Assembly: GCA_025358205.1 (NCBI GenBank)
Contig: JANYKG010000070.1
Span: 13,748 to 77,747 of the forward strand
Length of the DNA stretch: 64,000 nucleotides
Direction of reading: 5' to 3'
Source of the DNA: Armatimonadota bacterium
GTDB lineage: Bacteria; Armatimonadota; UBA5829; DTJY01
Below, in pieces: positions 7,457 to 57,547 of this stretch. A model generated the notes under the pieces. It was not told where the DNA came from and did not search any database. It worked only from the letters and a program-made list of their open reading frames with translations. A program made the position numbers and the translations under genes. The stretch's first letter is position 1. Each line of letters begins with the position of its first letter.

Positions 7457-7486
7457 CCCGCCTGCCTTGTGTGTTCCGGCACTAAC

Positions 7487-7639: not shown

Positions 7640-7999
7640 TCAGGCGCTCAGCGTTTCCTGCGCCTTCTTTACGAGTGCGGTGAATCCGGCAGCATCGTGA
7701 ACAGCCATGTCCGCGAGGATCTTGCGGTCAATCTCCACTCCGGCCTTGGTCAGACCTTCCATGAAGCGGCTGTACTGCATACCGTTCAGTCTGGATGCGG
7801 CGTTGATTCTGGCGATCCAGAGGCGGCGGAACTCCCGCTTGCGGTTGCGCCTGTCACGGTAAGCATACTGCAGCGCGTGCATGACGGCTTCGTTTGCTGT
7901 CTTGAACAGGTGACTTCTCGCTCCAAAGTAACCCTTGGCGCGGTCAATTATCTTTTTGTGACGCTTGTGCGTCATGATTCCACGTTTAACTCGTGGCAT
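7640..7999 (-). CDS. rplT: 50S ribosomal protein L20
   Basis: MPRVKRG...HKRHKKI... canonical bL20 sequence. Confidence 0.95.
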
Positions 8000-36389: not shown

Positions 36390-36606
36390 AATGCCTTACC
36401 CTTTGCCCTTTCGGAATTGCCTTGCAGCCATCAACGCGAAAAACGTTTAGATGATTAGCTAATTGACTAAATATTATCACATCGCGGCTGGGTTGTCAAC
36501 TTCTTTTCGCATGGCAGTATGGTTCCGGGAGCAGGCGCCCTGCGCGGGCCGCCACGAAATTCAACTTGTAACACCATAGAAGCGATGGATTCGGTTTGGA
36601 GAAAGA

Positions 36607-38323: not shown

Positions 38324-38470
38324 CCTGGATTATTCATGAAGTGAATAATCCAGGGCCTTCAGAGCATTATTCACCCTCTCGTGAATAATGCGGACTAGCG
38401 CGGATTATGCTTGTCCCGCATAATCCGCGGCCTTCGGAGCATTGTTCACGAAGTTCGTGAGCAATGCGTA
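38324..38470. repeat. REP-like composite element, copy e (four tandem palindromic units)
   Basis: CTGGATTATTCATGAAGTGAATAATCCAGG; GAGCATTATTCAccctctcGTGAATAATGCGG; CGGATTATGCttgtccCGCATAATCCG; GAGCATTGTTCACgaagttCGTGAGCAATGC. Confidence 0.85.
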
Positions 38471-42640: not shown

Positions 42641-42715
42641 CCTGGATTATTCATGAATCGAATAATTCAGGGCCTTTAGAACATCATTCACGCTTATCGT
42701 GAATAATGCGAACTA
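42641..42715. repeat. REP-like element, copy f
   Basis: CCTGGATTATTCATGAATCGAATAATTCAGGgcctttagaaCATCATTCACgcttatcGTGAATAATGCG. Confidence 0.8.
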
Positions 42716-46510: not shown

Positions 46511-46583
46511 CCTGGATTATTCGTAAAACGAATAATCCAGGGCATTCTGAGCATTATTCACTCTCTTTATGAATAATGCGGGC
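46511..46583. repeat. REP-like element, copy h
   Basis: CCTGGATTATTCGTAAAACGAATAATCCAGGgcattctGAGCATTATTCActctctttaTGAATAATGCGGG. Confidence 0.85.
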
Positions 46584-48279: not shown

Positions 48280-49542
48280 TCACGAAAGCGAAATGTGCGA
48301 TACCCGTGCGATGTCCTTCTTCCTTAGCAAGCCCATGGCACCCAGGTTAAGCGCAATCACCACTAGCGATATCCACAACGCCATGCGCATGCCCGTGTGA
48401 TCGGCCACCACGCCGACTGTCGGTGGGAAGATCGCGCCGCCGAGCGAACCTGCCGCTACCAGTATGCCCATCGCAGTGCCCGTCTGCCCCGGATACGCCG
48501 CACCGGAACAGCTCGCGATCGTGGGGAATATGGGGCCAAGACATGTCCCTAGAAGAAAGACGAACGCCATGCCTGAGGTCGGGCCGTGAACCAGCAGAAG
48601 CAGTGCCTGGAACAGCGCCGCGACCATCAGTCCGCACCGGATTGTGGGAACCTCGGAAATGCGCGTTGCCAACCAGCCCGCGAGGATTCTACCCAGCGTG
48701 ATGCCCGCCCAGAATACCGCCACGCTCCATGCGGCGTACGAGGGCGTCGCGCCCAGATCAGCTTTGAAGTAGACCGCCAACCAGTTCCCGGTTCCGGTCT
48801 CCGCGCCCACATAGAGCATTATCGAGGCGGCCAGCACCAGCAGAAGCCTGTCCTTCATCAGTGTGGCCATGCCGGACTCGTGGTGTCGCATCGGCGAGAG
48901 CTCCTCGCGCCCGACAATGAACGTGGACAGGGCGGCGATGCCGGCGATGACACAGACCCCCGCGCCGCCGTAGTAAGCCGCTTGCCAGTGAATGCCCATC
49001 TTCAGCAACTGACCGACCCCAAGCGGGCAGGCGATGGCCCCGAACGAGAACGCCGCCTGAGACCAGTTTGCCATGGACATTCGCCGCGCGCCGGTGTAGA
49101 GGTCGCTGACCAGCGCCATGGCTGAGCCTTCTGAGAGTCCTCCACCGAACCCCATGAGCAGTGTGGAGAGAAACGCGGTGCGGAAATCGGACGACTGCGC
49201 GAAGAGGATCATCCCGACCGCCATCGCCGCGCATCCCGGCCAGATGGCGTGCAGCTTGCCGTGCTTATCAGTGAACCGCCCAGCGCAGATCACTCCGGTG
49301 AAAAAGCTGATCATCAGCGCGCGGAACAGCCAGCCGAGCGTGGACTGAGTGGCATGGAAGAACGCTCCGACCTCATTCATGGAAGCGGACGTGACGGTGA
49401 AGGCGACCGCGTATGCGAAAAGGCTCGCGAAAGCAGCAGCCGTCGCAAGCCGGCGAAAACGGGGATTCGTCTGTTCGTTCAAACGTACATCCAATTCCAA
49501 GGGTTTCAGTTGCCGGTTTCCGGGTTCCAGGGGATCCGACAC
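48280..49542 (-). CDS. MFS transporter
   Basis: 12 TM helices; MFS pattern. Confidence 0.75.
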   Translation of the reverse strand: MSDPLEPGNRQLKPLELDVRLNEQTNPRFRRLATAAAFASLFAYAVAFTVTSASMNEVGAFFHATQSTLGWLFRALMISFFTGVICAGRFTDKHGKLHAIWPGCAAMAVGMILFAQSSDFRTAFLSTLLMGFGGGLSEGSAMALVSDLYTGARRMSMANWSQAAFSFGAIACPLGVGQLLKMGIHWQAAYYGGAGVCVIAGIAALSTFIVGREELSPMRHHESGMATLMKDRLLLVLAASIMLYVGAETGTGNWLAVYFKADLGATPSYAAWSVAVFWAGITLGRILAGWLATRISEVPTIRCGLMVAALFQALLLLVHGPTSGMAFVFLLGTCLGPIFPTIASCSGAAYPGQTGTAMGILVAAGSLGGAIFPPTVGVVADHTGMRMALWISLVVIALNLGAMGLLRKKDIARVSHISLS

Positions 49543-49716
49543 CTGAAACCCGTCACCCGAAACCGATATCTGCTCAGTCAGTGTATTATCTCGCCCACGT
49601 ACAGCCTATGCTATTCCCTGAGGATACCAGTCCGCGATCTTTGAGTCAAGGCCACTAACGCCGTCGTCCACGAGCAGGATGGCGCGTACACCGCGAAAAT
49701 ATTGCGCCAAACTACT

Positions 49717-49745
49717 TGACAAACCGGCCGCCGCGTGATAACATT
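49717..49745 (+). promoter_or_regulatory. sigma70-like promoter TTGACA-N17-TAACAT for ArsR-like regulator
   Basis: Located 30 nt upstream of start 49778. Palindromic TTAGCTAA box lies just downstream. Confidence 0.4.
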
Positions 49746-49777
49746 TAGACAATTAGCTAAACATCAAAGAGTTATTC

Positions 49778-50356
49778 ATGGACAAAATTTACAAAGCAAT
49801 CTCAGATGCAACGAGGCGAACCATCCTGAAGCTCCTCCGCGAGCGTGACATGACCGCTGGGGAGATAGCGGAACACTTCGACCTCACAAAGCCGACGCTC
49901 TCCAGGCACTTCTCGGTACTCCGTGAGGCAGGACTCATCACAGACGAAAAGAAGGGGCGAAACATCATTTATCGCCTGAACGCGGAACTTTTGGAGAACT
50001 CGCTTGTCTCACTAATGGAGGACTACGCGTTCGTGTGGACGCCGCCGATGGATGTGGAACAGGCCGCGAGAGCATTTGTGGAGTCGCTCGTCCGTGGTGA
50101 TTTCCAGAACGTTGTGCAGGACTTTGATGAGACCGTGGCAGCCATATTGACTCCCGAAAAGCTTCGCGACACGTGGAATCGTGTTATCGAATACCATGGT
50201 CCGTTCATCAAGCAGACAGATGTATGCACGGAGAAGTACTGGAAGTACACCACCGTAGTCATTGCCTGTGAGTTCGGCAACTCGAAGGTAAACATCAAGG
50301 TGACCTTCAGCAGATCGGGGCAAATCTCGGGACTGCTGATCCTGGAAGCGCAATAG
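49778..50356 (+). CDS. ArsR/SmtB (SdpR-like) HTH regulator fused to C-terminal DUF3887-like domain
   Basis: N-terminal ISDATRRTILKLL...GEIAEHFDLTKPTLSRHFSVLREAGLI HTH. C-terminal about 90 aa resemble the N-domains of the two downstream hydrolases (RGDFQNVVQDFDETV...NIKVTFSRSGQISGL). Confidence 0.7.
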   Translation: MDKIYKAISDATRRTILKLLRERDMTAGEIAEHFDLTKPTLSRHFSVLREAGLITDEKKGRNIIYRLNAELLENSLVSLMEDYAFVWTPPMDVEQAARAFVESLVRGDFQNVVQDFDETVAAILTPEKLRDTWNRVIEYHGPFIKQTDVCTEKYWKYTTVVIACEFGNSKVNIKVTFSRSGQISGLLILEAQ

Positions 50357-50357
50357 T

Positions 50358-50430
50358 CCGCATTATTCATGCTGAGCATGAATGATGCTCTGAAGGCCCT
50401 GGATTATTCATTTCATGAATAATCCAGGCT
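50358..50430. repeat. REP-like element, copy i (opposite orientation)
   Basis: CCGCATTATTCATGctgagCATGAATGATGC...CTGGATTATTCATTTCATGAATAATCCAGG. Confidence 0.85.
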
Positions 50431-50454
50431 AGGAAAGGATAAGAGGAGAACATT

Positions 50455-51762
50455 ATGAATCGTTTTGTAACGACGATGGGAAGAATAGTCCTCATGGTCG
50501 TGACGTGCGTGGCAGTGCTGGCAGCTGCATCCTGTGCCAAACCCAGCGCCACCCAAGTGGCTGAGGGGATGGTTGACTCCATGGTTAGGGGTGACTTTGC
50601 CTCCGCGACCAAGGACTTCGACGCCGCAATGCAGGCCGCCTTGCCCGCGGAGAAGTTGGGCCAAAGCTGGGCGCAGGTGACGGCGCAGATAGGGGCATTC
50701 AAGTCACGCACCGGAAGCCGTGAGGCACAGGAGGCCGGCTCTCAGACTGTACATGTGACCTGCCAGTTCGAGAAGGGGAGTTGGGACATCAAGGTCACAT
50801 TCGACAAAGACGGCAAAATCGGCGGGCTGTATGGGTCCCCTGCACAATCCGCGGAAGTGCCGTATAGGATGCCGTCATACGTTCACAAAGAGCGATTCGA
50901 GGAGTACCCTGTTTTCGTCAACAAGGGCGGCGAGTGGGAACTCCCGGGCACGCTGACTATTCCGAAGGGCAAAGGGCCATTCCCTGCCGTGGTTTTGGTT
51001 CACGGCTCCGGCGCACAGGACCGGGATGAGACCATACTTGCCAACAAGCCGTTCAAGGACATCGCATGGGGCCTGGCGTCGAGAGGGGTTGCGGTCCTGC
51101 GGTACGATAAGCGCAGTAAGGTATACACTGACCCGGCGAAGTGGGGCAAGAGCTTTACCGTCAAGGAGGAAGTGACGGACGACGCGCTGGCGGCCGTCAA
51201 ACTGCTTCGCGGCTCCACCGGGATCGATCCGAAGAGGGTCTTCGTGTTGGGCCACAGCAATGGCGCCTTGCTCTCTCCGAGGATCGGGAAGGCCGACCCC
51301 AAGATCACCGGGCTGATCATGATGGCCGGGTGCATCACCCAGCCAGTAGAGAAGTGTGTCTTGCGGCAGGCCACGTACATAGCCTCACTAAATGGGCCGA
51401 TAACCGATGACACCAAGAAGGAGATCAACAAGCAAGTGCAATCGGCCATGAAGAGCGTGCCGGATTCATACAATCAGGATCTCGATGACTATATTCGGGC
51501 GGCGCCGGAGATGGCAAAGTCGCTGAAACAGCCCATGCTCGTCATTCAGGGCGCACGGGACTACCAGGCCATCGAGGCAGACTTCAAAATCTGGAAGGCT
51601 GCGCTCTCTTCGCGAACCAATGTCACGTTCAAGCTCTACCCGGACCTGAACCACCTCTTCATGACGGGAACCGGCATGGCCACGCCCTCCGAGTACGAGA
51701 AACCCGGTACCGTGGCGCAGTCAGTGGTCAGCGACATCAGCGATTGGATCAACGGGCATTAG
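50455..51762 (+). CDS. lipoprotein: N-terminal DUF3887-like domain + alpha/beta hydrolase (GHSNG nucleophile elbow)
   Basis: Signal peptide with AASC lipobox. DUF3887-like segment GDFASATKDFDAAM...WDIKVTFDKDGKIGGL. LVHGSG, VLGHSNGA and a DLNH-type His. Confidence 0.7.
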   Translation: MNRFVTTMGRIVLMVVTCVAVLAAASCAKPSATQVAEGMVDSMVRGDFASATKDFDAAMQAALPAEKLGQSWAQVTAQIGAFKSRTGSREAQEAGSQTVHVTCQFEKGSWDIKVTFDKDGKIGGLYGSPAQSAEVPYRMPSYVHKERFEEYPVFVNKGGEWELPGTLTIPKGKGPFPAVVLVHGSGAQDRDETILANKPFKDIAWGLASRGVAVLRYDKRSKVYTDPAKWGKSFTVKEEVTDDALAAVKLLRGSTGIDPKRVFVLGHSNGALLSPRIGKADPKITGLIMMAGCITQPVEKCVLRQATYIASLNGPITDDTKKEINKQVQSAMKSVPDSYNQDLDDYIRAAPEMAKSLKQPMLVIQGARDYQAIEADFKIWKAALSSRTNVTFKLYPDLNHLFMTGTGMATPSEYEKPGTVAQSVVSDISDWINGH

Positions 51763-51771
51763 GAGCATCAT

Positions 51772-52131
51772 ATGTGGACGACATTTGTTCAGCAGGCCGG
51801 AATGCTATTCCAACAACCGCTTCTCATTGGGTTAAGTGTGCTCTGCATTGTGGGAGGGCTGCCGCTGGCAATGAATCTCATCCCACCCAATCCCATTTCC
51901 GGTGTCAAGGTTCGGAAAACCCAATCCGATAAACGCATTTGGTATCTCGTCAATTCGTATTGCGGCAAGGGATTAATTCTGACCGGGGTTATCACCATTG
52001 TCTGTGCCGTGGCGCTCCGCCTGACAGCTATGCCGCCAGCCACATGCGGAGCGATAGGCGTTCTGGTGCTCGTCGGCGGCCTTGTGCTGTGGGTCGTCGC
52101 GACCTTGATCTACCTGATCCGTGTAAAGTGA
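51772..52131 (+). CDS. SdpI/YhfL-family small membrane protein
   Basis: IPPNPISGVKVRKT motif (PNP..G.R.T) between TM helices. Confidence 0.6.
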   Translation: MWTTFVQQAGMLFQQPLLIGLSVLCIVGGLPLAMNLIPPNPISGVKVRKTQSDKRIWYLVNSYCGKGLILTGVITIVCAVALRLTAMPPATCGAIGVLVLVGGLVLWVVATLIYLIRVK

Positions 52132-52137
52132 ATTTGG

Positions 52138-52210
52138 CCCGCATTATTCACAAACAACGTGAATAATGCTCTGAAGGCCCTGGATTATTCGCTTCATGAA
52201 TAATCCAGGC
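52138..52210. repeat. REP-like element, copy j
   Basis: CCGCATTATTCACaaacaaCGTGAATAATGC...CTGGATTATTCGCTTCATGAATAATCCAGG. Confidence 0.85.
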
Positions 52211-52255
52211 TAGCTTCGGTCTGTTGCATTGAATGAGCGTGCCTGAAAGGAGAGA

Positions 52256-53680
52256 ATGATGAAGAAACACACTATCGCATGGAGACTAGTGGCTATCGGC
52301 TTGCTGGCGATCGGCCTTATGTCGCAAGGTGCCTATGCCGACCGCGCCGCTGACGGCACTGCGTTTCTGCAGTCTGTGAAGAGTGGGCAGTACGCCGAAG
52401 CTGTCTCGCATTTCGACGCAGTAATGAAACAGGCGATGTCCGCCGCGCAGTTGAAGGATACCTGGGAGATGGTCTGCCAGAAAGTGGGAGCATACGGCGG
52501 AATCACCAAACCTCAGGTCTGGAAGAAGGACGTAGGCGGTAATGTATACGATATCGTCCAGTTCCCCAGCAAGTTCGGCAGCACGTCGCTGGACATCTGG
52601 GTTGTCTACGATCTGACCGGGGAGATCGGCGGATTGTGGTTTTTGAATCCTTCGCCGGGAGGTCCACCGGCCGCCATTACGCAGGGGCTTCCGGCCAAGT
52701 CCGCCGGACCTCAATACACTGCTCCGTCATACGTTCGCAAAGAACGATTTGAGGAGTACCCCATTTTCGTCAACGAAGGTGAGGAGTGGCAACTTCCCGG
52801 AACGCTTACCATGCCTAAGGGCGAGGGGCCTTTCCCGATCCTGATCCTCGTTCATGGTTCCGGTCCGAATGACCGGGATGAGGCCATAGGTCCCAATAAA
52901 CCGTTCATGGATATCGCGTGGGGTCTGGCATCCAACGGAATAGCGGTCGTGCGATATGACAAGCGCACCAAAGTCCATTCAGCGAAGCTGGCCAAGATGG
53001 TAGACAAAATAACGGTGAAGGAAGAGACCGTTGACGATGCGCTGGCCGCAGTTTCGCTCACCCACTCTCTGCAGAGGATAGACCTGAAGCGAATCTACGT
53101 CCTCGGCCACAGCCTGGGCGGAATGCTTATACCGCGAATCGGCGCAGGAAATTCAGAGATCGCTGGTTTGATCGTGCTTGCCGGGCCGACCAGACCGTTT
53201 GAGGATATTCTCCTGGAGCAGGTCACCTACATCGCCTCACTTAAAGATACATTAACAGCGGACGACAAGGCTGAGTTGGCGAAATTGAAACAGCAGGTGG
53301 CGAACGTGAAAAGCCCAAAGCTCTCGCTCAAGACCCCAATGTCAACGCTGCCCCTCGGTACGTCTCCCGCATCGTACTGGCTTGATCTGCGGGGCTACAA
53401 ACCCGCAGAGTCGGCAAAGACGCTGAAACAGCCCATGCTCATCATGCAGGGCGGGCGCGACTATCAGGTCACCGAGGCGGACTTCAAACTCTGGAAGGAT
53501 GCGCTTTCTTCGCGGACCGACGTTACATTCAAGCTCTACCCTGACCTGAATCACCTGTTCATGACCGGAGTCGGTAAGGCCACGCCCTCCGAGTACGAGA
53601 AACCGGGCAGTGTGGAACCGGCCGTGGTAAGCGACATTGCCGATTGGATAAACGGCCAGCAGACAGTAGGTGCGAAATGA
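52256..53680 (+). CDS. secreted DUF3887-like domain + alpha/beta hydrolase, paralog
   Basis: Signal peptide. SGQYAEAVSHFDAVM...DIWVVYDLTGEIGGL domain. LVHGSG and LGHSLGG. Confidence 0.7.
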   Translation: MMKKHTIAWRLVAIGLLAIGLMSQGAYADRAADGTAFLQSVKSGQYAEAVSHFDAVMKQAMSAAQLKDTWEMVCQKVGAYGGITKPQVWKKDVGGNVYDIVQFPSKFGSTSLDIWVVYDLTGEIGGLWFLNPSPGGPPAAITQGLPAKSAGPQYTAPSYVRKERFEEYPIFVNEGEEWQLPGTLTMPKGEGPFPILILVHGSGPNDRDEAIGPNKPFMDIAWGLASNGIAVVRYDKRTKVHSAKLAKMVDKITVKEETVDDALAAVSLTHSLQRIDLKRIYVLGHSLGGMLIPRIGAGNSEIAGLIVLAGPTRPFEDILLEQVTYIASLKDTLTADDKAELAKLKQQVANVKSPKLSLKTPMSTLPLGTSPASYWLDLRGYKPAESAKTLKQPMLIMQGGRDYQVTEADFKLWKDALSSRTDVTFKLYPDLNHLFMTGVGKATPSEYEKPGSVEPAVVSDIADWINGQQTVGAK

Positions 53681-54162
53681 GCGATAAGACAAACGTTTCA
53701 TTTCGGGAGGTTCAGCGCGGTATAGGTTACTGGCTAGCGCTCGTTCTGGTCGTGGCGTTCATCGGCCCGTATGTCTGGACCCGGCACGCGCCACCACAAG
53801 GCATGCTGCTGGCGACGGCATTGCTGATCTTCTTTTTCACGTACCTTTGCAGGATGGTTACCGAGGTTCGCGATGACGGCGTATACGTGCAGTGGTGGCC
53901 CTTCGTGCCGATGTTTCGCAGGTTTCCGTTCGCTGACATCGAATCAGCAGTAGCACGAACGTACAATCCCATAGGCGAGTACGGCGGCTGGGGCATCCGC
54001 GTCCGAATCGGACCGGGCGCGAAACTGGGCGGCGCGTACAACATGAAGGGCAACCGAGGCGTGCAACTCGTCTTCAAGAACGGCGTACGTCTCCTCATCG
54101 GCTCGCAGGACGCCGAAAACCTTGAACACGCCATCCGAAGCGACATGAGCCGGTATGCTTAA
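53677..54162 (+). CDS. membrane protein with 2 TM + bacterial PH-like domain
   Basis: Start MSDKTNV overlaps the upstream stop. 2 TM, then a GGWGIRVR...GVQLVFKNG beta-rich domain. Confidence 0.45.
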   Translation: MSDKTNVSFREVQRGIGYWLALVLVVAFIGPYVWTRHAPPQGMLLATALLIFFFTYLCRMVTEVRDDGVYVQWWPFVPMFRRFPFADIESAVARTYNPIGEYGGWGIRVRIGPGAKLGGAYNMKGNRGVQLVFKNGVRLLIGSQDAENLEHAIRSDMSRYA

Positions 54163-54246
54163 ATCATTGAGAGTTTACAATTCTGTTTGGGTAGACTTGA
54201 CATGCATCCGTCTACGACCGATAATGAATACGGAGTTGCATGTGAT

Positions 54247-54414
54247 ATGAGGAGATACAAGCTGTCCGAACTGCAGACAGAACTGCGTGCGAAAGGTATC
54301 CCCGCGCTAGCGCAGAGGCTCAAGAAGGAGTCGGGATACGACGCTCGTGCGCGCAAACTGCGCCGCAACCCCGGTGAGATAAAGGCGGCCGATGATGCCC
54401 GACGGCCCGAATGA
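54247..54414 (+). CDS. small basic protein (55 aa) upstream partner of NTase
   Basis: MRRYKLSELQTELRAKGIPALAQRLKK... Overlaps the NTase start. Confidence 0.4.
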   Translation: MRRYKLSELQTELRAKGIPALAQRLKKESGYDARARKLRRNPGEIKAADDARRPE

Positions 54415-55018
54415 TAGAGTTGACCATCTGTCAGCGCTCAAATCACGCCTTCACCACATCTCACCATCACCCAGCCGTCAAGGATTATTAACTCAAGTTG
54501 CCTCGCTCATCACCGAGGCATTCATGGCGCTTGGTGTCAGCCCGCCTGTAGTGGTCGGTGGTCTCGCCGTGGAGACATACACTACCGCCGAGTATACGAC
54601 TCGGGATGTTGACTTCATCCACACTGACGACTCAGCGGTCGCAAGAGTGATGCATGCCCTCGGTTTCACAAAGCGTCCCGGACATCGTTACTATGTGCAT
54701 CCGCAGGTTGATGTCTACGTCGAGTTCCCAACCGGTCCCCTGGATGGTGACAGTACCCGCATCTCCGAGATACAGCTTGACGACGGGAGCCTCATCTTCG
54801 TGATCGGTATCGAGGACATTATCATTGACCGGTTGTCCGCTTGGCAGAACTGGGACAAACTGCGAGAGGATTCGGAAGACGCGATCCAGGCGATCACGCT
54901 GTTGGTAGCGCAAGCCGGTAGCATTGACCACGATTACCTGAAGGCGGTCGCTGCTGAACGTGGGTTGTCCGATGCGTTGTCGGAAATCCAGCAGCGAGTT
55001 AACGCCCTGCGAGGATGA
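54392..55018 (+). CDS. AbiEii-like nucleotidyltransferase, paralog of 20338..20931
   Basis: VVVGGLAVETYTTAEYTTRDVDFI NT-fold motif. Confidence 0.6.
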   Translation: MMPDGPNDRVDHLSALKSRLHHISPSPSRQGLLTQVASLITEAFMALGVSPPVVVGGLAVETYTTAEYTTRDVDFIHTDDSAVARVMHALGFTKRPGHRYYVHPQVDVYVEFPTGPLDGDSTRISEIQLDDGSLIFVIGIEDIIIDRLSAWQNWDKLREDSEDAIQAITLLVAQAGSIDHDYLKAVAAERGLSDALSEIQQRVNALRG

Positions 55019-55268: not shown

Positions 55269-55892
55269 ATGAAGAATGCAGCGTTGATGATCTTCGTACT
55301 GGTTCTTAGCTGCATGATCTCAGCTAAGGCATCCACATTCACGGTCAACAGCAGAGCACTGGACGGTTCAAACACGCCGCACTTCGTGACATATACTGCT
55401 TCCTGCCTGGGGATGTACGAGTTTGACGTGTCGGGTACCTACCAGTATACCCTCAGCACAAGCACCTATTGGGCAGATGCAGGGTGGGCTACGCTAGACA
55501 GCTGGGCAACAATCACACCCAAGGTTGATGGCACACCCCGCCAAGATACACCGATCGATCCCGCTTTGCCTACTCCGGCTGGTATACTGATGTTGTGGTT
55601 TAGCGATGGTAGCGAAAACTTCCACGAGTGGGGTGAATATTCGTCATCGCATACCTACTCTACGCATAGAACACTGACCGCAGGCCAGCAACTCACTTTC
55701 TGGATATCAGACTGGTATCCCTACAGTGCAACTGACTACCAACGCTCATATGGGCCGCAGTGCTATGCGGATAACTCTGGCTTCCTCACCGTTAGTGTAG
55801 CGGTTGAAGCGGTACCCGAGCCGTCATCCTTCGTTGCCCTGGGTGCGCTGGTGGTGCCACTACTAGCGCGCAGCCGGTGCAGAAAGCACTAA
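55269..55892 (+). CDS. PEP-CTERM sorting-domain secreted protein
   Basis: Signal peptide. C-terminal VPEPSSFVALGALVVPLLARSRCRKH (PEP motif, TM, basic tail). GC is lower than its surroundings. Confidence 0.75.
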   Translation: MKNAALMIFVLVLSCMISAKASTFTVNSRALDGSNTPHFVTYTASCLGMYEFDVSGTYQYTLSTSTYWADAGWATLDSWATITPKVDGTPRQDTPIDPALPTPAGILMLWFSDGSENFHEWGEYSSSHTYSTHRTLTAGQQLTFWISDWYPYSATDYQRSYGPQCYADNSGFLTVSVAVEAVPEPSSFVALGALVVPLLARSRCRKH

Positions 55893-56229: not shown

Positions 56230-57547
56230 ACTGTGCTTCTGCCCTCACCGGTCGTGTCAGGCAACGACGTGTTTGACCCGGTCCGGGAAGAACACCGCCA
56301 GTTGCGCCAGTATCTGCCCCCAGTTGGGCACCCGCATCGTCCACTTGCGGGTCACGTCCTGCGTCACAAGATAGAGCATCTTCAGCAGCGCATCATCGGT
56401 CGGAAAGATGCTCTTTCCTTTTGTCACCTTCCGAAGCTGCCGGTGGTAGCTCTCGATCAGGTTGGTCGTGTAGATGATCTTCCTAATCTCCGGCGGGTAG
56501 GCAAAGAAGGTCGCTATCTCCGCCCAGTTCCTCCGCCAGGACTCTACGATATACGGGTACTTCTTGCCCCATTCCGCCGCAAATAGATCAAGCTCAGCTA
56601 GTGCCACTTCCTCAGACGGGGCGGTGTATACCTTCTTCAGGTCAACCGTCACCTTCTTTACGTCCTTGTAGGAGACGTACCGTATCGAGTTCCTGACCTG
56701 GTGCACGATGCACTTCTGTATCTCGGTCTTCGGGAACGCCGCCGAGATCGCTTCGCTGAACCCAGAGAGATTGTCCACACTTACGATCAGTATGTCCGCC
56801 ATCCCACGGTTCTTCATCTCTGAAAGCACCGACAGCCAGAACTTGGCCGACTCGCTCTCGCCGATGTATATGCCCAGCACATCCTTCCTGCCCTCAAGGT
56901 CGATCCCGATCACCATGTAGGCCGCTTTGCTCTTGATCTGGCCGTTGTCTCTCACCTTGTAGTGAATGGCATCCAGGAATACGAACGCGTACACCTCTTC
57001 AAGCGGCCGGCTCTGCCACTCGTGAATCAGCGGCATGATCTTATCCGTGATGTTGCTGATGAGCCCAGGCGAGACGTCTATGCCGTAGAGCTCGTGGAGG
57101 TAGTCCTGTATCTCCCTGGTGCTCACGCCTTTCGCGTAGAGGGCTATGATCTGCTCCTCGATCTTCGAGATATTCCTCTCGCGCTTCTTTACGATCAGGG
57201 GATCAAAGTCGCATTCCCGATCACGGGGGACTTCTATATCCACCTCTCCGTGGCTCGTGCGCAGTGTCTTCGTGCCGTGACCGTTCCTGCGGTTCTCCGT
57301 CTTCTTGTTCTCGGAATCGTTCTTCTCGTAGCCGAGATGGTGATCCATCTCAGCCTCAAGCATCGCCTGGATCGTCTCGCCGAAGAGATCCTTCAGCGTC
57401 TCGTGGATATCCTCGACAGTCTTGATGTTCCGTTCCCTAATCAGTTCCTTGATCTGTTCTCTGCTCAGTAGTGCCATGTTGCGCTTTCTGTCCTTTCCTT
57501 CGTAAGTATATCCTACGACCGAAGGTTAGGCAAAAGCACACTTCATT
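56217..57547 (-). mobile_element. IS256-family insertion sequence (transposase CDS 56257..57477)
   Basis: 406 aa Transposase_mut (IS256) protein. Imperfect terminal IRs GTGTGTCAAGTAAACTGTGCTTCTGCC (left) and GTGTGTAGAATGAAGTGTGCTTTTGCC (right, revcomp). Confidence 0.85.

Follow-up and report, generated by a model that had tools for sequence, protein, structure and literature searches.

An SdpR-type repressor fused to DUF3887 in Armatimonadota: a candidate ligand-responsive switch for exported DUF3887 esterases

What would an SdpR-type repressor gain from a domain that is also carried by exported enzymes of its own operon? The question is raised by a locus of an uncultured Armatimonadota bacterium (contig JANYKG010000070.1 of assembly GCA_025358205.1, positions 13,748–77,747), a stretch of 64,000 nt called here the window, in whose numbering all coordinates below are given unless a locus is named. 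Five co-oriented open reading frames (ORFs) on the + strand (49778–54162) are designated R, E1, S, E2, and D. The features, including those 5′ of the first gene, are the following (TMS, transmembrane segment).

49716–49721 and 49739–49744 (+): operon promoter, TTGACA and TAACAT, sigma-70 type with a 17-nt spacer and TG before the −10
49745–49768 (+): candidate SdpR operator, a 24-bp palindrome (TTAGACAATTAGCTAAACATCAAA) directly after the −10
49778–50356 (+): R, 192 aa, SdpR-family ArsR-type winged helix (about residues 1–85) and DUF3887 (97–186)
50455–51762 (+): E1, 435 aa, predicted lipoprotein, DUF3887 and EstD-like alpha/beta hydrolase (GHSNG)
51772–52131 (+): S, 119 aa, 3-TMS SdpI-family protein with the PF13630 half only
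52256–53680 (+): E2, 474 aa, signal peptide, DUF3887 and EstD-like hydrolase (GHSLG)
53677–54162 (+): D, 161 aa, DUF6141 membrane protein with two TMS and a C-terminal beta-rich domain

Our reading, to which we give a probability of about one half, is that R acts as a ligand-responsive autorepressor of the exported esterases, with the DUF3887 domain as its signal input.

The first gene encodes, as the initial annotation of this DNA had proposed, an ArsR-type regulator of the SdpR family. R passes the cut-off of the NCBIfam SdpR model NF033789 (109.9 bits, cut-off 100, residues 4–80) and matches Pfam HTH_5 with E 1.7e-16; DUF3887 (PF13026) follows at residues 97–186 with E 2.1e-14. Canonical SdpR proteins are single-domain and about 90–110 aa long. 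R differs by the added DUF3887 and by its length, 192 aa versus 91–112 aa for the short SdpR proteins. No signal peptide, TMS, or hydrophobic segment is predicted in R. An AlphaFold2 model built from 43 family members has a mean predicted local distance difference test (pLDDT) score of 92 and shows the ArsR-type winged helix in full, with the dimerisation helix alpha5 at its C-terminal end. The closest structural match of the N-terminal part is SrnR (7P6F), followed by other ArsR proteins. The C-terminal part consists of helices followed by a four-stranded sheet and matches 4HYZ (TMt 0.67 over 113 columns), so that the NTF2-like DUF3887 fold expected for this domain is recovered, the prediction covering the domain of R only.

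All 43 full-length sequences in the alignment, the most distant at 58% identity, keep the fusion, and W133, G141, K145, C164, F166, G181, and G185 are invariant within the DUF3887 domain. The linker between the two domains, LMEDYxFVWTPP, is conserved in about 50 clusters. We considered a frameshift or an assembly artefact and rejected it, the 192-aa architecture recurring in about 50 clusters from many samples. Where the sources annotate the fusion, it appears as a regulator of the ArsR or SdpR family.

The metal-sensing ArsR/SmtB proteins (SmtB, CzrA, CadC) share the winged-helix fold with R, but R is without the alpha3N Cys motif and the alpha5 metal site. Inspection by eye of residues 1–90, with no motif scan, reveals no Cys and no alpha5 His/Asp/Glu metal-site pattern, and both Cys residues of R sit in the DUF3887 domain. 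The sensory input of R is therefore not a known kind of metal site.

DUF3887 has an NTF2-like fold, and its describers suggested small molecules as ligands (Eberhardt et al. 2013, PMC3924330). The survey of the family finds it consistently outside the cytoplasm, lists no helix-turn-helix (HTH) fusion, and gives fusion to C-terminal hydrolase domains as its third architecture category (PMC3924330). E1 and E2 match that hydrolase-fusion architecture, with the domain N-terminal. R, which belongs to the same Pfam family and has the same fold in its model, differs: its domain is predicted cytoplasmic, whereas E1, E2, and the stand-alone copies are predicted exported. A cytoplasmic DUF3887 has one precedent, the fusions to RelI-like DNA-binding proteins of actinomycetes (2026 paper, PMC13284704).

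The homology between the C-terminal domain of the regulator and the N-terminal domains of the hydrolases, which is central to the initial annotation, holds in profile searches and in alignment. PF13026 scores above its threshold of 31.8 bits in all three proteins (R 54.4, E1 73.4, E2 46.4), and the three segments align with 28–37% identity and 16 invariant columns. In E1, the domain spans residues 36–125 (E 2.4e-20) and precedes an alpha/beta hydrolase domain, and the N-terminus ends in VLAAASC, which fits a relaxed lipobox pattern. In E2, the domain spans residues 37–127 (E 6.3e-12), again with a hydrolase domain, behind a signal peptide ending in AYA. Aligned end to end, the two proteins share 49% identity and have the motifs GHSNG (E1) and GHSLG (E2), in agreement with the earlier view of two paralogous secreted GHSxG hydrolases, one of them with a lipobox. 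Against the 421 positions of the NCBIfam EstD model NF041096, E1 scores 386.3 bits (positions 4–419) and E2 411.6 bits (12–420). Both scores are below the equivalog cut-off of 600, and E1 and E2 are therefore relatives within the EstD family, not orthologues or equivalogs. EstD, the Thermotoga maritima esterase reportedly described by Levisson et al. in 2007, shares with E1 and E2 the combination of DUF3887 and alpha/beta hydrolase, the GxSxG motif, and the export signal, but the two score under the equivalog cut-off. We know of no reported link between EstD and an SdpR-type regulator.

The DNA upstream of R suggests how the operon may be controlled. The promoter claimed by the initial annotation, TTGACA-N17-TAACAT, is present with 10 of 12 hexamer matches; its position is corrected to the one given above. 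When the DNA upstream of R is aligned for 11 fusion loci, only TTGACA, the −10, and the 24-bp palindrome are conserved, the palindrome with the consensus TTAGAnnnTTAG followed by CTAAnnnTCTAA. Exactly one copy is present per fusion locus, upstream of R, and the palindrome is expected 0.01 times in shuffled window sequence. In 37 SdpR-only loci of many phyla, the same motif stands directly 5′ of the SdpR gene. In these, the palindrome TTAGATnnTTAGCTAAnnATCTAA lies about 2–26 nt before the SdpR start (among L016–L089; for example 7975–7998 in both L044 and L067), and the 37 loci come from Proteobacteria, Planctomycetota, Acidobacteriota, Gemmatimonadota, and others. From its position and distribution, the palindrome looks like a candidate family-wide SdpR operator that R has retained.

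A second promoter with the same arrangement is present in the window, about 13 kb from the operon, before another gene.

36447–36500 (−): second promoter and operator, TTGACA, 17 nt, TAATAT, TTAGTCAATTAGCTAATCATCTAA
34416–36389 (−): GxGYxYP putative glycoside hydrolase, 657 aa, PF14323 with E 1.8e-40

Over about 60 nt, the second promoter and operator are roughly 85% identical to the promoter of R. The GxGYxYP gene starts 57 nt downstream of the second operator, and its product has a hydrophobic, signal-peptide-like N-terminus. The gene is predicted to be an extra member of the R regulon.

SdpR::DUF3887 is a narrow, mostly Armatimonadota family, with about 50 clusters at 90% identity, all at least 58% identical to R. 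Full-length matches occur in six loci among 185,579 species-representative genomes, on five distinct contigs (L013 repeats the contig of L004). Four of the six carry the label Armatimonadota or Armatimonadetes; of the other two, one is unclassified and one labelled Brocadiia. The last, a metagenome-assembled genome (MAG) labelled Candidatus Brocadiia (L014 / L005–L006), is the only named fusion-bearing source other than Armatimonadota; the label could come from mis-binning or from horizontal transfer.

Downstream sequence of any length is present for 16 loci, and in 16 of 16 the next gene, 9–150 nt from R, codes for an exported DUF3887 protein and/or an EstD-type hydrolase; 11 loci extend far enough to score SdpI. 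Some loci have a stand-alone DUF3887 lipoprotein gene between R and the esterase. On one short contig, the gene after R (L094, 342–1418) has a hydrolase domain without detectable DUF3887. An SdpI gene is near R in three of the 11 informative loci found through R (the window, L008, and L093). The 3-TMS SdpI family is small (42 clusters), and the further contexts sampled, three of three, are again R::DUF3887 operons. The gene orders are as follows, with L100–L102 being those further contexts.

L093: R-(DUF)-E-S-E-S
L100: R-DUF-E-S-E-S
L101: R-E-S
L102: R-E-S-E-DUF6141, the same order as in the window

ArsR-DUF3887 fusions thus do occur near SdpI genes, the point that a survey of gene neighbourhoods was meant to check. 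The five-gene order recurs in L102, where an orthologue of D occupies the same position, and parts of it recur in L093, L100, and L101. The five-gene module is real and co-conserved in a subclade. With the genes co-conserved and the C-terminal domain of the regulator aligning with the N-terminal domains of the hydrolases, neither of the two findings that were to overturn the initial annotation was made. The invariant core is R with an exported DUF3887 protein and/or an EstD-type esterase; SdpI is an accessory of one subclade, and still fewer loci have DUF6141 or the second esterase. After the operon in L102 (8482–12339) come a SASA-family (sialate O-acetylesterase-like) gene and a gene for a beta-helix GH141-like protein.

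The third gene of the operon, S, invites comparison with SdpR/SdpI of Bacillus subtilis (Ellermeier et al. 2006, as summarised in PMC2910880 and PMC11995493). Here too, an SdpR-family ArsR-type gene stands upstream of an SdpI-family gene within one operon, but an esterase gene sits between R and S, R carries an extra 100-aa DUF3887, and S is missing from most relatives of R. The assignment of an SdpI-family membrane protein between the two hydrolases is confirmed by the match of S to Pfam SdpI (PF13630; E 9.3e-12, 45.4 bits, threshold 28.2, residues 37–114). B. subtilis SdpI has six TMS; S has three predicted TMS and is without the DUF1648 half. Between TMS1 and TMS2 of S is a basic loop, PPNPISGVKVRKTQSDKR, predicted cytoplasmic. 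The C-terminal half of SdpI (PF13630) has been assigned to SdpR binding and the DUF1648 half to toxin binding and immunity (PMC2910880, PMC11995493). S corresponds both to the 3-TMS class in PMC2910880 and to TrpP in PMC11995493. The SdpR/SdpI pair had been described as fused in the window; the two are not joined to each other, and the actual fusion is SdpR::DUF3887. Elsewhere, four proteins of 244–282 aa (P0095, P0105, P0107, and P0109) combine an ArsR/SdpR HTH and an SdpI domain, and there a repressor appears to be fused directly to its own membrane partner.

The converse arrangement, with DUF3887 on the membrane partner, is found in the same phylum. The DUF3887 segment of R was searched against 1.84 billion representatives, which gave 1136 matches, and the best 150 were examined. 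Among these best 150 of 1136, the HTH is carried only by the fusion family itself, and the SdpR::DUF3887 fusion is rare, as judged from that set; the same best 150 contain five SdpI fusions, three BlaR1-M56 proteins, and two Ser/Thr kinases. From these architectures, DUF3887 is predicted to be the outside domain of several signal transducers. A metagenome scan with a single DUF3887 segment gave seven loci, single-protein queries reaching close relatives only. The SdpI fusions, with DUF1648, SdpI, and DUF3887 in one protein, are among the closest DUF3887 domains (best 150 of 1136), and both that have a source name are labelled Armatimonadota. They contain the six SdpI TMS and a seventh before DUF3887. 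This seventh TMS, together with the published topology (PMC2910880) and the positive-inside rule, places their DUF3887 outside the cytoplasm.

In three of three such loci (L090–L092), a short SdpR gene is directly upstream of SdpI::DUF3887, and in L090 a DUF3887-hydrolase gene directly follows. The HTH of R is 66% identical to that of one of these short SdpR proteins. The three loci share with the window the phylum, the three families, and the operator motif. They have DUF3887 on the membrane protein, predicted outside, whereas the window has it on the cytoplasmic repressor. Within one phylum, then, DUF3887 is carried by the membrane partner in some loci and by the repressor in others, and in both cases the enzyme has a copy as well. 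In a neighbour-joining tree, the R DUF3887 clade adjoins the SdpI-fused domains, with no support from column bootstraps, and the mean identity of the R domain is 0.336 to the SdpI-fused domains, 0.334 to those of E1 type, and 0.304 to those of E2 type. The groups are not separable by these identities and the bootstraps give no support, and we therefore make no claim on the origin of DUF3887 in R.

SdpR loci are diverse beyond this phylum. SdpI is directly downstream of SdpR in many SdpR-only loci. Nine others (L061, L062, L066, L070, L074, L076, L077, L083, and L089; for example L062, 8001–11128) have SdpR, then one or two small multi-TMS proteins, then a secreted hydrolase. Their sources are Phycisphaerales, a Planctomycetota MAG, a Sphingomonadales MAG, and unclassified MAGs. 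The small membrane proteins are weakly SdpI-like, below Pfam significance. In the two of the nine loci in which the hydrolase was examined, it is 561–576 aa long, with an EstD-type catalytic domain and a different, uncharacterised N-terminal region of about 250 aa.

How could these components work together? R would bind, presumably as a dimer, to the 24-bp palindrome abutting the −10 and so shut off its own promoter; it would also shut off the second, near-identical promoter before the GxGYxYP gene. A small molecule related to the substrate or product of the esterases would then bind to the DUF3887 of R and free R from the DNA. R would thus work as a one-component sensor, its signal being a compound akin to the ligand of the esterase DUF3887 domains. 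In the subclade with S, this 3-TMS half of SdpI may tether R to the membrane and so add, or preserve, a second input. The proposal of the initial annotation that one small molecule may be sensed on both sides of the membrane draws independent support from the SdpI::DUF3887 fusions beside short SdpR genes of this phylum. DNA binding by R, a ligand on its DUF3887 and what that ligand is, the contact between R and S, and the substrate of the esterases are the steps that we infer. As to the substrate, the second operator before the GxGYxYP gene and the SASA-family and GH141-like genes of L102 give thin hints that esterified glycans may be the field.

Several points weigh against this reading. The DUF3887 of R is only 28–37% identical to those of E1 and E2 and shows no greater similarity to the domains of the neighbouring esterases than to DUF3887 domains elsewhere; a shared ligand is therefore not implied by the sequence. 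The structure of the domain has been solved since 2013, 4HYZ is the only one, there is still no known ligand, and the sequence around the 4HYZ cavity is poorly conserved (Eberhardt et al., PMC3924330). In Bacillus, SdpR is regulated through sequestration rather than by ligand binding. Two strong hairpin elements lie inside the operon, and co-transcription of the five genes is suggested by the spacing and the single operator only.

Beyond the autorepressor itself, a wider idea is possible though on balance doubtful: DUF3887 might be the missing signal-input module of SdpR/SdpI systems outside Bacillus, a single domain having moved between exported enzyme, SdpI, and SdpR. R would then represent a three-component relay short-circuited into a one-component sensor, with repressor and enzyme recognising the same esterified compound on the two sides of the membrane.

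Among the alternatives, the one that survives best, unlikely as it is, is that DUF3887 serves as a docking module for SdpI-type proteins or for other DUF3887 domains; R would then be controlled purely by membrane sequestration, and the E-S pairs would form an outside-to-inside relay. The covalent fusion of DUF3887 to SdpI in related bacteria is what such a module predicts, as is the arrangement of an esterase gene followed after 9–16 nt by a 3-TMS SdpI gene in the window, L008, L100, L101, and L102, with two E-S pairs in L100 and the E-S order twice in L093. The 3-TMS SdpI family was met only in R::DUF3887 operons in the contexts sampled, and S is the very half of SdpI assigned to SdpR binding (PMC2910880, PMC11995493). 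However, eight of the 11 loci found through R have no nearby SdpI gene, the seventh TMS puts the DUF3887 of the SdpI fusions on the membrane side opposite SdpR, and NTF2-like folds usually bind small molecules.

A second alternative concerns the role of the locus and can coexist with either sensing mechanism. The operon might serve in defence, as Bacillus sdpRI does, the esterases inactivating a membrane-active ester, lactone, or depsipeptide of competitors, with S for immunity or sensing and R as the switch. We regard this as improbable. The one SdpI that has been characterised confers toxin immunity and takes part in signalling, and operons that combine SdpR, one or more small membrane proteins, and a secreted EstD-type hydrolase turn up repeatedly in Phycisphaerales, Sphingomonadales, and others, with hydrolases that weakly match macrolide esterase and lactonase models. 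But no toxin gene is seen in the operon (no SdpC-like toxin is evident among the five products, no dedicated search for SdpC homologues having been made), the second operator precedes a putative glycoside hydrolase, and the SASA-family acetylesterase and GH141-like protein of L102 point to the breakdown of esterified glycans.

Least convincing, and quite improbable, is a passive DUF3887 on an ordinary SdpR-type autorepressor with another input, acquired by fusion of sdpR with a downstream DUF3887 lipoprotein gene and useful for oligomerisation or stability only: such genes directly follow R in L001, L009, L012, and L100, so that an origin by simple fusion is plausible, and the ArsR domain retains its own dimerisation helix, but about 50 clusters, with identities as low as 58%, keep both domains and the linker, invariant positions run through the whole of DUF3887, R has no signal-peptide remnant, and the same domain serves as a sensor on other transducers.

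We return to the autorepressor operon for its remaining features. The gap between E1 and S is 9 nt, and the stop of E2 and the start of D overlap as ATGA (4 nt). Hairpins had been reported at every gene junction; only two of the four junctions hold the element, whose copies are listed below (REP, repetitive extragenic palindromic).

50358–50432 (+): REP-like element, copy 1, 75 nt, in the R/E1 gap, two strong hairpins and no T-tract
52139–52213 (+): REP-like element, copy 2, 75 nt, in the S/E2 gap, 87% identical to copy 1
38324–38365, 42641–42682, and 46511–46552 (−): dispersed copies in the same window

Partial matches are present near 7486, 8444, and 63244. The RNA of the element folds with −40.9 kcal/mol (z −6.6), and no Rfam family matches it at E ≤ 0.1. 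With copies scattered through the window, the element is not operon-specific; it is missing from the same junctions in relatives (for example L004, L101, and L102) and therefore looks like a recent insertion. Intrinsic terminators are not more numerous than in shuffled sequence, and none is at a gene junction. An Rfam scan of 49000–54600 gave no match at E ≤ 0.1, so that neither the leader nor the hairpin elements contain a riboswitch or another known RNA.

The last gene, D, most likely starts at ATG 53677 and then equals the called gene P0432; the start at 53644 assumed before is abandoned. D matches Pfam DUF6141 with 29.7 bits (cut-off 27). For the bacterial PH (bPH) assignment of the initial annotation, one would look for a bPH profile match, or for two TMS ahead of a PH-like beta-sandwich and a C-terminal helix; no bPH family matches D at E ≤ 0.1. 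A single-sequence model of D is poor (pLDDT 58), with two long helices, strands, and a terminal helix, and all its fold matches have E > 0.1. Among the weak matches of this model, chains of GRK2, a protein with a PH domain, appear repeatedly, which is only a hint.

Of the neighbouring genes, the divergent major facilitator superfamily transporter (48280–49542) was considered as a ligand importer and set aside, as it is not kept beside R in other loci. Farther downstream, a 207-aa ORF (55269–55892, +) has a signal peptide and a C-terminal VPEPSSFVALGALVVPLLARSRCRKH tail that, by eye, resembles a PEP-CTERM sorting signal. A 406-aa ORF (56257–57477, −) resembles an IS256-family transposase.

The combination had been put forward as undescribed, and searches of the full-text literature retrieved nothing on SdpR or SdpI combined with DUF3887. 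The novelty lies in a new sensor domain on an SdpR-type regulator, within a recurrent and undescribed association of SdpR, SdpI, and esterases. SdpR/SdpI pairs are common in bacterial genomes, and only the Bacillus cannibalism system is characterised (PMC11995493). The locus provides a lead on what DUF3887, and the widespread SdpR/SdpI pairs, may respond to. With the domain on enzyme, membrane partner, or repressor, one common ligand would be expected for three proteins that are soluble or tractable, and with the defined 24-bp operator as a read-out the functions of DUF3887 and of SdpR/SdpI outside Bacillus can be tested directly. In evolutionary terms, the locus illustrates cleanly how a sensor domain can move from one cellular compartment to another. 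None of this is categorically new, yet two poorly understood families become experimentally approachable.

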